Of a stretch of 64,000 nt of DNA, positions 38,231-41,557 are shown one piece after another. Source of the stretch: Chlamydiia bacterium (GTDB lineage Bacteria; Chlamydiota; Chlamydiia; Chlamydiales; GCA-2402025). Every line of letters starts with the position of its first letter. Within the stretch, counting starts at the first letter, position 1. Both the position numbers and the translations under genes were made by a program. The notes beneath the pieces were generated by a model. That model ran no database searches and had not been told where the DNA came from. It saw only the letters and a list, made by a program, of their open reading frames with translations. The stretch lies in NCBI GenBank assembly GCA_030427725.1, contig JAUICV010000001.1, forward strand, positions 605,298 to 669,297, written 5' to 3'.

Positions 38231-38267
38231 AAAGCAAAAAGCCCTCTGAAAAAGGGCTTTTTGTTTT
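38231..38267 (-). terminator. rho-independent terminator of the 38275-39786 gene
   Basis: AAAGCCCT-7 nt-AGGGCTTT with flanking A/T runs, 8 nt below the stop codon. Confidence 0.6.
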
Positions 38268-38274
38268 ACAGCTA

Positions 38275-39786
38275 CTATATACTGCCTATAATTTTTTTAA
38301 GTGCTAAAAAAATAGCCTTGTATCCTCGACCTGAACTAAACATGGCGAAGGTTTCTTTTTTCTTTCCTTCTTCATCAGTATAAGGAATCACTGCACCTAC
38401 TCCCGCTGCATCCCCTTTCAAATCACAAGCTACCACTCTTAGACCCGAATAATCAACAGACTTCATTTTTTTTGGAAGAGTTCCAGAAATGCTAAGTGGA
38501 TCTGCTGAAGAATCGCCGTCAGGAGTTAGAGAGTCAAATTCAACCTGAAATTTATCCTTAGAAAATTTATTAACATCAAGATTTAAAAACCCTAGAGCAC
38601 CGGAAAGAGATGGGTTATTGTTGGCTTTTGGAAAAGCTTTTTGAGCACCTCCAAATCCTGTTTCAAGAGAATTAATCCTTTTTAATTTATATTCTTTAGA
38701 ACCATTTTTATATGAATACGTTTTATTAAAGTCTCCATCATTTAAGGAAATAATAGCATTATTCATTGAGTCTACGACAATGCCTAGGACACCTCCTAGA
38801 TCCGAAGATGTTGTAACGACTTTTTCATCAGGAGTATCCCCCAAAGAATCAGTTATCGCAACAACCTCATCGGCAGAGTTTTTGTATGTGATAGCAACGT
38901 CGTAATTTTCATTACACGATGCTAACGATGAGTCTGCAACGACTACATCACCTACTCTGCTAAGAGTTTTTGTTGTATTATACGCTCCACCTTCCTTGGT
39001 CTGATAACTAGCTTTGACTTTTTTGTCTGCTTCATAAACAACTACTGCAGTTTTTTTAGCAGGATTTTTTACACAAGCGTCAACCAAGGTAGCTTTTGTT
39101 GCAACTAACTTATCGTAAATCTGTTTATCTCCTTTTATTCCAAGTGCTCTAATTTCTTTTGTTCCTTGAGTATTTGTAATCTCAACTATAATTTGTATTG
39201 AACCTCTACCTACTTGTACCGCTTTAACTTTGCTAGCTTTCTTAATGTTGCTTAAATTTTCGACAGCTTTTTTTATTGGAGTTTTTTTACTGACATCAAC
39301 AAGTTCCACTTCCAATCTCTCCGAGTCATTAATCTTTGCAACCCCCACTCTCCAACCTGAAACACTCCAATCAGCTTTGTAGGGAGTAACAGCAACCTGG
39401 TCTTTAGCTCCTCGCTCTCCCCAAGATGCAAATCCCAAAGAAATTGAACTGTCATCAAAATTGTCTGCGGATGAGACATGAAGTGTAACCTCTGCTTTTG
39501 TTCCATCGATATTTTTAGCAACTGCTACCGCATACTTTCCTGTTGACTCATCAATGCAAGAGGCTGGTAAATCTAAAACTCCTTTATCATATTTACCTGT
39601 GCTAGCTTTTATCTTTGACTCCATTAGCTCTGATCCCTCTGGCAGAAAGTTTGTTAAACCTACCACCAACTTCACCACCTTATCTCCCAGATTGAAATTT
39701 GTAGCTTCTGCTTGACTGCTATTAAGTAAGCTAGCTGCGATTACTCCTAAGCATAAACGAGAATATATCTTCGATTTGTTAATCAT
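38275..39786 (-). CDS. exported ~500-aa hypothetical protein (paralog 1 of a tandem pair)
   Basis: Signal peptide (..LGVIAASLLNSSQAEA|T), beta-rich. Shares collinear blocks with 40011-41486 (STGKYAVAVAK / STGKFVTAIAR; EIRALGIKGDKQIYDK / EISAIGIKNGTQVYKK; VVVYEADKKVKASYQTKEGGAYNTTK / CVVYEKSNKVYAAYQTSKSGAYATSK). Confidence 0.7.
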   Translation of the reverse strand: MINKSKIYSRLCLGVIAASLLNSSQAEATNFNLGDKVVKLVVGLTNFLPEGSELMESKIKASTGKYDKGVLDLPASCIDESTGKYAVAVAKNIDGTKAEVTLHVSSADNFDDSSISLGFASWGERGAKDQVAVTPYKADWSVSGWRVGVAKINDSERLEVELVDVSKKTPIKKAVENLSNIKKASKVKAVQVGRGSIQIIVEITNTQGTKEIRALGIKGDKQIYDKLVATKATLVDACVKNPAKKTAVVVYEADKKVKASYQTKEGGAYNTTKTLSRVGDVVVADSSLASCNENYDVAITYKNSADEVVAITDSLGDTPDEKVVTTSSDLGGVLGIVVDSMNNAIISLNDGDFNKTYSYKNGSKEYKLKRINSLETGFGGAQKAFPKANNNPSLSGALGFLNLDVNKFSKDKFQVEFDSLTPDGDSSADPLSISGTLPKKMKSVDYSGLRVVACDLKGDAAGVGAVIPYTDEEGKKKETFAMFSSGRGYKAIFLALKKIIGSI

Positions 39787-39824
39787 AAATGAAATCCCTT
39801 ATTGTTAGATTTACAAACTCCGTC

Positions 39825-39853
39825 AATGTAAGTAAAACATGCCTCGATGTCAA
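39825..39853 (-). promoter_or_regulatory. candidate sigma70-type promoter of paralog 1
   Basis: Minus strand reads T-run + TTGACA-17 nt-TACATT, 38 nt upstream of ATG 39786. Confidence 0.4.
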
Positions 39854-39920
39854 AAAAAAAATTTGTTCATCGAGTGGTGTTTTACTTTTTAAGATGCTTT
39901 GTGAACTTTGCTATTAAAGC

Positions 39921-39956
39921 AAAAAAAAGCCCCTCCATATGGAGGGGCTTTTTTTG
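39921..39956 (-). terminator. rho-independent terminator of the 40011-41486 gene
   Basis: A8-GCCCCTCC-ATAT-GGAGGGGC-T7: GC-rich 10-bp stem. Confidence 0.7.
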
Positions 39957-40010
39957 AGGTTAACGCAATATTAATCTACAGATTTTCTATCCTTACTGTT
40001 TTAACAATAA

Positions 40011-41486
40011 CTAGAAACCAAAATCTTGAGCCAGTCTAATGATAGTTTCAATAAATTCCCCTGGACGTTTCTGCGAGGAGAGTTGATATAACACCTGATG
40101 CATAGTTCCGTCATCATCAATATAATAATCACAAAATGCAGCAGCTGATGCATTTTGTTTTGCAGCTATAACAACGCTTCTTACCTTGTCATAATCAGCT
40201 TCTTTAAATTTTGTGTTTCTTTTAGAGACATAACTAGCAATAATATCACTTACCCCTGTTGGATCTGTTCTAACTAGAGAAAATTGATATTTTCTAGATC
40301 CTATTTTGCTTGCAAGAAGGGATAAAAAACTTGAGTTTAGAGTAAGGGTTGTGTTGCTATTACCTTTTTGCTCTGAAACACTAACTCCTGTGTATGGCTT
40401 CCCTAAAGAATTAGTTGAATAGGTGACTACTTTTTCATCAAATACAGCAAATCTTTGACTATATCCTCCAACATTTGCAGCTAATACAGTACTTCCATAA
40501 GAATTTGCACTAAGTTCTGTAATAGCATCAATTTTACCACTGGCAAGAACTGTTATTTCAGTAGGAGCCTCACTTAAAATATCAGAGACTTGAGCCAGCT
40601 CTGATCCAGTTAAGTAAGCGATATAGCCCTGTCTTCGTTCATTAGACGTCAGTATAGTTGATCCTTGAGACACAACATCAGCTAACCGACTAACTTGTTT
40701 AGATGTTGCATAAGCCCCACTTTTTGATGTTTGATAAGCTGCATAGACTTTATTAGATTTTTCATAGACAACACAAGCTGTGTTTGCTGTATTTGCAAAA
40801 GCTCCAACAAGACTTGCAGATTTCACAACACTTTTCTTATAGACCTGCGTTCCGTTTTTTATTCCAATAGCGCTAATTTCTACTTGATTGCTTTTATTTT
40901 TGTGCTCGACAACAACCTCTGCTTGCCCTGAGCTTTTTTTAACTACAAAAACCTTACTAACACCTGTTAGTTCTTTAATATTTTCGATAAGCGTTTCTTT
41001 CAGCTCTTTAGACTCAACAGAAACGGATTTCACCACAAGTTTGTTATTAGGAGAGCGAAATGCAAAAAGGGCCGTTGTATCATCAATCCAATCTACGCTT
41101 ACATTTTCTTTTGAAGCATCGGTTGTCCAAACCGTATCACCAAGTTCAATCTGTCTATAGGATGGCAGAACAGAAGGGTTAGAAATGGTAGCTTTTACTG
41201 TTGCTTTAGAGCCACCTTGGTATCTAGCTATTGCTGTTACAAATTTTCCAGTAGATGCATTAAGAGAAGAACTGACTATATCATAAACGTTCTTGTCAAA
41301 CTCAAGGTTTTTCCCAGGTGTAATCATTTGGTTATCCAATACTTGCCCTACCGGTACAGCACTCTGAAGACCTCTTTCGAATGCTTTAAAAAAAGCCTCA
41401 TAAGCCTCATCCTGTTCACAACCACAGAATAAAATCACTCCTGTCACTAAAAATAAATGTGGGAACATTTTGTAGATACGCTTCAT
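40011..41486 (-). CDS. exported ~490-aa hypothetical lipoprotein (paralog 2 of a tandem pair)
   Basis: ATG 41486 with GGAG 8 nt upstream (the ORF track starts at TTG 41510). Signal peptide ending LFCG|C. Collinear similarity to 38275-39786. Confidence 0.7.
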   Translation of the reverse strand: MKRIYKMFPHLFLVTGVILFCGCEQDEAYEAFFKAFERGLQSAVPVGQVLDNQMITPGKNLEFDKNVYDIVSSSLNASTGKFVTAIARYQGGSKATVKATISNPSVLPSYRQIELGDTVWTTDASKENVSVDWIDDTTALFAFRSPNNKLVVKSVSVESKELKETLIENIKELTGVSKVFVVKKSSGQAEVVVEHKNKSNQVEISAIGIKNGTQVYKKSVVKSASLVGAFANTANTACVVYEKSNKVYAAYQTSKSGAYATSKQVSRLADVVSQGSTILTSNERRQGYIAYLTGSELAQVSDILSEAPTEITVLASGKIDAITELSANSYGSTVLAANVGGYSQRFAVFDEKVVTYSTNSLGKPYTGVSVSEQKGNSNTTLTLNSSFLSLLASKIGSRKYQFSLVRTDPTGVSDIIASYVSKRNTKFKEADYDKVRSVVIAAKQNASAAAFCDYYIDDDGTMHQVLYQLSSQKRPGEFIETIIRLAQDFGF

Positions 41487-41528
41487 AAAAACAACTCCTA
41501 TATTTTTCAAAATTTAATTTTTTTTTTT

Positions 41529-41557
41529 ACAGTAAGCATCTCTTTGCTAAAAGTCAA
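41529..41557 (-). promoter_or_regulatory. candidate sigma70-type promoter of paralog 2
   Basis: Minus strand reads T-run + TTGACT-17 nt-TACTGT, 42 nt upstream of ATG 41486. Same layout as the paralog-1 promoter. Confidence 0.35.

Follow-up and report, generated by a model that had tools for sequence, protein, structure and literature searches.

Two neighbouring genes of a Chlamydiia bacterium, here called A and B, appear to belong to a family of exported proteins with at least five paralogs in two tandem arrays, seen so far only in this chlamydia, and their products quite likely fold as beta-propellers. The family is new at the sequence level; its fold and export type are of already known kinds. 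We consider the chances about even that A and B represent a small, fast-diverging family of exported propellers with a binding role at the envelope or host interface. Both genes lie within a stretch of 64,000 nucleotides (nt) of contig JAUICV010000001.1 (assembly GCA_030427725.1, positions 605,298 to 669,297 of the forward strand), hereafter the window, in which an initial annotation had noted a pair of exported, beta-strand-rich paralogs. Positions refer to the window unless the Logan contig L082 is named.

38275-39786, minus strand: gene A, an open reading frame (ORF) of 503 amino acids (aa); exported, predicted beta-propeller
40011-41486, minus strand: gene B, an ORF of 491 aa with an AGGAG ribosome-binding site; predicted lipoprotein and beta-propeller
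L082 2114-6647: tandem array of genes C1-C3, on a 24-kb Logan contig from sample ERR3428547

Paralogs and distribution of the family

A and B are collinear paralogs, as the initial annotation had proposed, and their similarity is significant on formal alignment (BLASTP E 1e-41, 29% identity over 449 aligned residues), with the highest identity, 42%, at alignment columns 191-300. The start of B is the ATG at 41486, which the ribosome-binding site precedes, and the reading frame stays open further, to a TTG at 41510. GC content, GC content at third codon positions (GC3) and codon usage of the two genes are typical of the window, which makes a recent foreign origin unlikely; recent horizontal transfer was rejected on the match in GC3 and codon usage. 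The cysteine clusters and Pmp-type motifs that had been reported missing are indeed missing: cysteine makes up at most 1% of either protein, and a count of chlamydial Pmp autotransporter motifs in A and B gave no GGA[ILV] and 0-1 occurrences of FxxN.

An A+B profile, run exhaustively with HMMER against 1.84 billion representative proteins (50%-identity), gave four proteins, A, B, P0003 and P0004 (E 1e-5), the only ones at E <=0.001. P0003, a weak match of 612 aa, was rejected as a tandem-repeat artefact, and P0004, together with its longer form P0005, is gene C3, the sole relative of A and B in that set. C3 (476 aa) forms the second tandem array with C1 (491 aa) and C2 (474 aa), so that the search for further paralogs added three members, which share 28-34% identity with one another. 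C3 is also recovered directly by A (BLASTP E 1e-10), and the profile of A+B aligns with that of C1-C3 at an hhalign probability of 96.2% (E 2e-9) over 266 collinear columns, spanning residues 39-320 of A and 30-308 of the C proteins. The C-terminal third is not alignable between these two subfamilies, and the five paralogs have no more than three invariant charged residues in common. Since C1-C3 come from sample ERR3428547, which also yielded a Logan contig (L001) 100% identical to the window, they very probably reside in the same genome as A and B. In NCBI, A and B are found on an 863-kb contig and C1 and C3 on a 674-kb contig.

The initial annotation recognised no family for the pair, and database comparison leads to the same result. 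Pfam and NCBIfam returned no match for A and only chance matches below threshold for B; the weak matches Mesd, GH43 and XopF2 were rejected as far below the cut-offs. A profile of all five members gave only chance matches among PDB sequences (E >0.1). No solute-binding-protein family of Pfam or NCBIfam matches A or B, and their predicted structure is nearly all beta and not of the alpha/beta two-lobe type. Among GTDB representative genomes, which apparently do not include the window's genome (best GH63 match 62%), the A+B alignment found no related loci. The five-member alignment was too divergent to give search patterns; patterns from the C1-C3 alignment, together with the back-translated VVYE...KV.A.YQT motif, detected no further members in JGI metagenome contigs. 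A word-based homolog search with A, the five-member alignment and C1 returned only the query and missed the known paralogs of 29-34% identity, which makes it a weak negative.

Predicted fold and export

The AlphaFold2 model of B was built on an alignment of four family members, C1 included. It reaches a predicted template modelling (TM) score of 0.61, and residues 62-350 have a predicted local distance difference test (pLDDT) score of about 55-94, mostly above 80. Strands of 5-10 residues, grouped in fours, make up six confident blades, and about five more strands fall within the unreliable C-terminal 140 residues. The model is that of a predicted propeller of about seven blades, which would occupy residues 62-350 of B or extend further. 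For A the model has low confidence (pLDDT 48) and is likewise all-beta, and all of its Foldseek matches are propellers. A C-terminal helix is predicted in both proteins, and in the C-terminal third variability appears to be highest and model confidence lowest. The models, nearly all beta, agree with the strand-rich character first read from the sequence.

Searched with Foldseek against the PDB, the models of A and B retrieved almost only beta-propellers. The best matches of B are the seven-bladed PHL/PLL lectins of Photorhabdus (6rgr, 8q83, 5c9o), with a target-normalised TM-score of 0.59, a root-mean-square deviation of 4.4-5 Å over about 300-310 columns and 12-14% identity. Other matches comprise fungal fucose lectins (AAL, AofleA), GH145 BT3686, sialidases, a rhamnose-glucuronate lyase, and the propeller domains of acylaminoacyl and prolyl peptidases. 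The sequence features of lectins and sialidases are absent: all blade-against-blade hhalign comparisons were insignificant, a regular-expression search for the Asp-box S-x-D-x-G-x-T-W found none in the five paralogs, and tryptophan occurs 0-4 times per protein across the five, 2-3 times in A and B. The structural matches therefore indicate a generic propeller. The suggestion that the pair may be a novel glycan-binding or envelope family stands in so far as the proteins look exported and are novel; with glycan binding the data are no more than compatible, as the best Foldseek matches, propeller lectins and glycosidases, have 10-14% identity and their defining sequence features are missing from A and B.

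The PLL and PHL lectins are secreted bacterial proteins that consist, like the model of B, of a bare propeller of four-stranded blades. Their blades are clear Trp-rich sequence repeats, which create a series of recurring sugar sites. A and B exceed these lectins by about 150 residues, have 2-3 tryptophans, show no similarity between blades and match no Pfam family at E <=1. Propeller glycosidases and lyases (GH145 BT3686, GH33 sialidases, the FoRham1-type lyase) share with A and B a propeller and export, at Foldseek TM-scores of 0.31-0.50 (target-normalised), but the five paralogs have neither Asp-boxes nor a family match (Pfam assigns them to neither BNR nor sialidases), and they show no visible conserved arrangement of catalytic residues.

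Signal-peptide-like N-termini were found in five of five paralogs, and a lipobox in B. The N-terminus of A, MINKSKIYSRLCLGVIAASLLNSSQAEA|TN, has a charged n-region, a hydrophobic core and an AXA site, as in signal-peptidase-I substrates, with likely cleavage after AEA at residue 28. The signal peptide of B ends in a lipobox (general form [LVI][ASTVI][GAS]C), where the PROSITE-type pattern matches MKRIYKMFPHLFLVTGVILFCG|C (LFCG|C), ending at Cys23; the position two before this cysteine is, unusually, also a cysteine. The type-I-like and lipobox-like signals described initially thus belong to A and B, respectively. From these signals, B would be lipid-anchored at Cys23 and A would be soluble, either periplasmic or secreted.

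Promoters and terminators

Each gene was said to have its own GC-rich terminator and the same upstream layout of poly-T, TTGAC(A/T), 17 nt, TAC(A/T)(T/G)T and a leader of about 40 nt, and both parts of this description were recovered, as putative elements, in the following positions.

38231-38267, minus strand: intrinsic terminator of A, -19.1 kcal/mol, z -3.3 (RNA fold), then a U-run
39825-39861, minus strand: promoter of A, with T-run, TTGACA (39853-39848), 17 nt, TACATT (39830-39825)
39922-39955, minus strand: intrinsic terminator of B, -24.6 kcal/mol, z -6.2 (RNA fold), then a U-run
41529-41564, minus strand: promoter of B, with T-run, TTGACT (41557-41552), 17 nt, TACTGT (41534-41529)

The terminator of A is an inverted repeat with 15-nt arms (93% complementary) and separates A from the downstream GH63 gene. 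That of B is a perfect palindrome (17-nt arms, 100% complementary) flanked by an A-run and a T-run, and can therefore act in both directions. The leaders, from promoter to ATG, measure 38 nt in A and 42 nt in B. The promoter of A scored 10/12 in a promoter scan; that of B, which lies between B and the divergently oriented GDH-like gene (start 41664, plus strand), was not listed by the scan because its -10 hexamer is weak relative to the sigma-70 consensus. With a promoter and a terminator predicted for each, A and B are best taken as separate transcription units.

This layout is rare and recurs in the second array. The pattern TTGACW-N17-TAYNNT has two matches on both strands of the 64 kb, precisely at the promoters of A and B. 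A second pattern defined on these two promoters, TTTTGACW-N17-TAC, likewise has two matches in the window, upstream of A and B (0.15 expected), and a single match in L082, at 5153-5180, directly upstream of C3 and in the correct orientation (0.06 expected per locus). The match at C3 follows a terminator hairpin 3' of C2. The pattern is not present upstream of C1 or C2; C2 begins 34 nt after C1, and these two genes are probably co-transcribed. The elements resemble those of sigma-70/sigma-66 promoters; the -35 matches the consensus, the -10 is of a weak TAC type, and inspection by eye showed no motif of sigma-28 or sigma-54.

The annotation took the similar upstream regions as a sign that the duplication had included the regulatory DNA, a conclusion that is not borne out. 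An alignment of the upstream regions of A, B and C3 shows nothing in common beyond the core elements and a few positions of the spacer, and C3, which lies in an unrelated locus, is preceded by the layout too; on these grounds a carry-over of duplicated DNA was rejected as the explanation. At protein identities of 18-29%, neutral DNA would long have been randomised, so that the common layout is better read as selection for one promoter type, and it suggests co-regulation of A, B and C3.

Imperfect inverted repeats with arms of 16-20 nt (80-85% complementary) bracket the core promoters of all three genes, at 39830-39849/39868-39887 (A), 41519-41538/41545-41564 (B) and L082 5142-5157/5194-5209 (C3). 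Neither the sequence nor the placing of the arms is common to the three, and those of B and C3 consist mostly of a T-run facing an A-run.

Genomic setting and candidate role

The genes around A and B are those given in the initial annotation, the one called treY there being an alpha-amylase-family gene.

35433-38111, minus strand: GH63/MGH1-like glycosidase
41664-42761, plus strand: GDH-like dehydrogenase
beyond the GDH-like gene: EamA transporter and the alpha-amylase-family gene

The nearest relative of the GH63 protein is from Ca. Algichlamydia australiensis (62% identity), followed by metagenome-assembled genomes (MAGs) of Chlamydiae, Parachlamydiales and Simkania (58-62%), which makes the source of the window a Simkaniaceae-like chlamydia. 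These chlamydial relatives keep the gene order mnmA-treY-EamA-(GDH)-GH63-abhydrolase: EamA, GDH and GH63 follow one another with a 110-nt gap in one locus (L003), and EamA directly adjoins GH63 in three others (L002, L004, L006). No homolog of A or B was detected by tblastn in 80 fetched GH63 loci, 11 of them chlamydial. As GH63 adjoins GDH or EamA in the relatives and no homolog of the pair is found there, A and B were evidently inserted at this place, and on this comparison they are a lineage-specific insertion of 3.3 kb in the divergent intergenic slot between GDH/EamA and GH63. The interruption of a metabolic block that had been noted is thus real, but it offers no functional clue: the flanking genes are neighbours in relatives, and the second array is flanked by dnaB and by a 615-aa gene resembling pyridoxal-phosphate-dependent decarboxylases and aminotransferases, with an RHS toxin gene further downstream. 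The carbohydrate context is best read as coincidental, and the neighbouring sugar genes as not being functional partners.

The same slot carries other genes elsewhere. In a Simkania MAG it holds an orphan ORF of 1175 aa (L005 6114-9641), and in a Chlamydiia MAG three tandem paralogs of 127-151 aa with long hydrophobic stretches (L010 8457-9882), which recall inclusion-membrane proteins. The slot appears to be a variable hot spot for accessory genes.

That A and B are carbohydrate-active propellers, whether lectins or glycoside hydrolases or lyases, which would bind or cleave glycans of the host and feed a pathway of GH63, the gene called treY and GDH, is suggested by the lectins, GH145 BT3686, sialidases and lyase among the top Foldseek matches, by the position of the pair between the GH63-like and GDH-like genes, and by the signal sequences. 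We regard it as unlikely. In relatives the block of GH63 and GDH/EamA is contiguous without the pair and its slot carries unrelated orphans elsewhere, the C1-C3 array has no carbohydrate context, and a terminator stands between A and GH63. The proteins themselves lack repeated blade motifs, Asp-boxes, abundant tryptophan (0-4 per protein) and any Pfam match to a lectin or glycoside hydrolase family, invariant charged residues number only three across the paralogs, and matches of 10-14% identity reflect generic propeller geometry.

The all-beta composition, length of about 500 aa, signal peptides and tandem multiplication also recall integral outer-membrane beta-barrels, that is, lineage-specific porins whose function would parallel that of the MOMP-like families in Simkania and further chlamydiae. 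Porin families of environmental chlamydiae do occur as multi-paralog tandem families. An aromatic C-terminal residue is present in B (F) and C3 (W), but it is not conserved, the last residue being I in A, S in C1 and E in C2. Further, the strands modelled, mostly at pLDDT 80-94, are only 5-10 residues long and grouped in fours as a propeller, almost all Foldseek matches are propellers, both A and B have a predicted C-terminal helix, B has a lipobox, and Pfam has no match to Chlam_OMP (chlamydial MOMP) or any other family; we therefore hold this identity to be very unlikely. Most improbable of all is that B, and perhaps A, is a housekeeping propeller of envelope assembly in the manner of BamB or TolB. 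BamB is an outer-membrane lipoprotein with an eight-bladed propeller, and B resembles it in its lipoprotein signal and predicted multi-bladed propeller. However, the family of A and B is restricted to one lineage, being absent from all other chlamydiae and other organisms searched, and exists in five divergent copies; A has no lipobox. No PQQ-like repeat and no BamB or TolB model of Pfam or NCBIfam matches, and neither protein is among the top 50 Foldseek matches.

We thus favour, at about even odds, an exported propeller family with a binding role. The propeller would serve as a rigid binding platform in the envelope or at the bacterium-host interface, that is, in the inclusion lumen or at the cell surface. 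Soluble A and anchored B would be made together through their common sigma-66-type promoter, and the divergence of the paralogs, strongest in the C-terminal third, may reflect changing ligands or host pressure. A bolder form of this proposal appears rather doubtful to us: the five paralogs could be a dedicated regulon of lineage-invented exported propellers, with at least A, B and C3 on one unusual promoter, switched on together at one developmental stage, and with soluble A and anchored B acting as a pair that recognises a host-specific ligand, at the envelope or within the inclusion lumen. If true, this would define a new class of chlamydial host-interface proteins that arose and diversified in a single lineage.

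Several points weigh against the binding-propeller interpretation. The alignments behind the AlphaFold2 models are very shallow, with two sequences for A and four for B, and the C-terminal 140 residues of B have a pLDDT below 35, which leaves blade number and ring closure uncertain. TM-scores of B to known propellers are modest, at 0.43 query-normalised as against 0.59 target-normalised. The signal-peptide and lipobox calls come from simple rules and not from SignalP or LipoP. The placing of C1-C3 in the same genome draws on the shared sample and similar GC content, and the case for restriction to this organism, strong for the A/B type after the exhaustive HMMER scan, is weaker for the C type, where it comes from a word-based search and a pattern scan. 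Finally, the binding or host-interface role derives from fold, export and evolutionary pattern, and propellers can also be enzymes, so that the role could be an enzymatic one.

As a tandem-expanded orphan family of one lineage with native base composition, A and B resemble other lineage-specific accessory families of environmental chlamydiae; they differ from these in the predicted fold, export route and promoter layout common to A, B and C3. To our knowledge, the orphan genes of environmental chlamydiae number in the thousands and are presumed to serve host adaptation, and almost none has been linked to a fold, a location or a regulatory element. Such families are very common, so that one more will not surprise a specialist: a pangenome study of chlamydiae left 29.5% of proteins without an eggNOG mapping and counted 25,886 singleton de novo groups (PMC8242063). 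The present analysis adds predictions of fold and location, the second array and a promoter common to two loci, which together make the family testable and a tractable candidate for a lineage-specific factor of the envelope or host interface. It also illustrates how a neighbourhood can mislead, the sugar-metabolism context here stemming from insertion in a variable intergenic slot.

Across GH63 from A and B, the plus strand carries another tandem pair of orphan paralogs, at 33565-34284 and 34378-35394. The two are 44% identical over 191 aa (E 9e-61), and each contains two internal repeats of about 95 aa (DGFQWSDL...TDTPYLPD...DP(L/I)FK); neither has a Pfam match or a signal peptide, and the pair is absent at the abhydrolase-GH63 junction of one relative (L006). 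The longer gene (34378-35394) has an acidic, Ser/Thr-rich duplicated N-terminal stretch. The contig L001 ends within this gene (34551-34692), and its last 74 nt match a second position at 94.6%, so that the break in the assembly is explained by the internal repeat.

Elsewhere in the window, five ORFs of 337-466 aa (844-2004, 2193-3521, 7283-8296, 27655-28929 and 53829-55229) have no Pfam family at E <=1e-5, and none of them resembles A or B by tblastn. At 8238-9092, on the minus strand, lies a gene for a SET-domain protein (Pfam E 4e-20). Beyond C1-C3, L082 8908-16619 contains a gene for an RHS/YD-shell toxin of 1888 aa together with three small ORFs of 210-226 aa that could be either immunity genes or paralogs.

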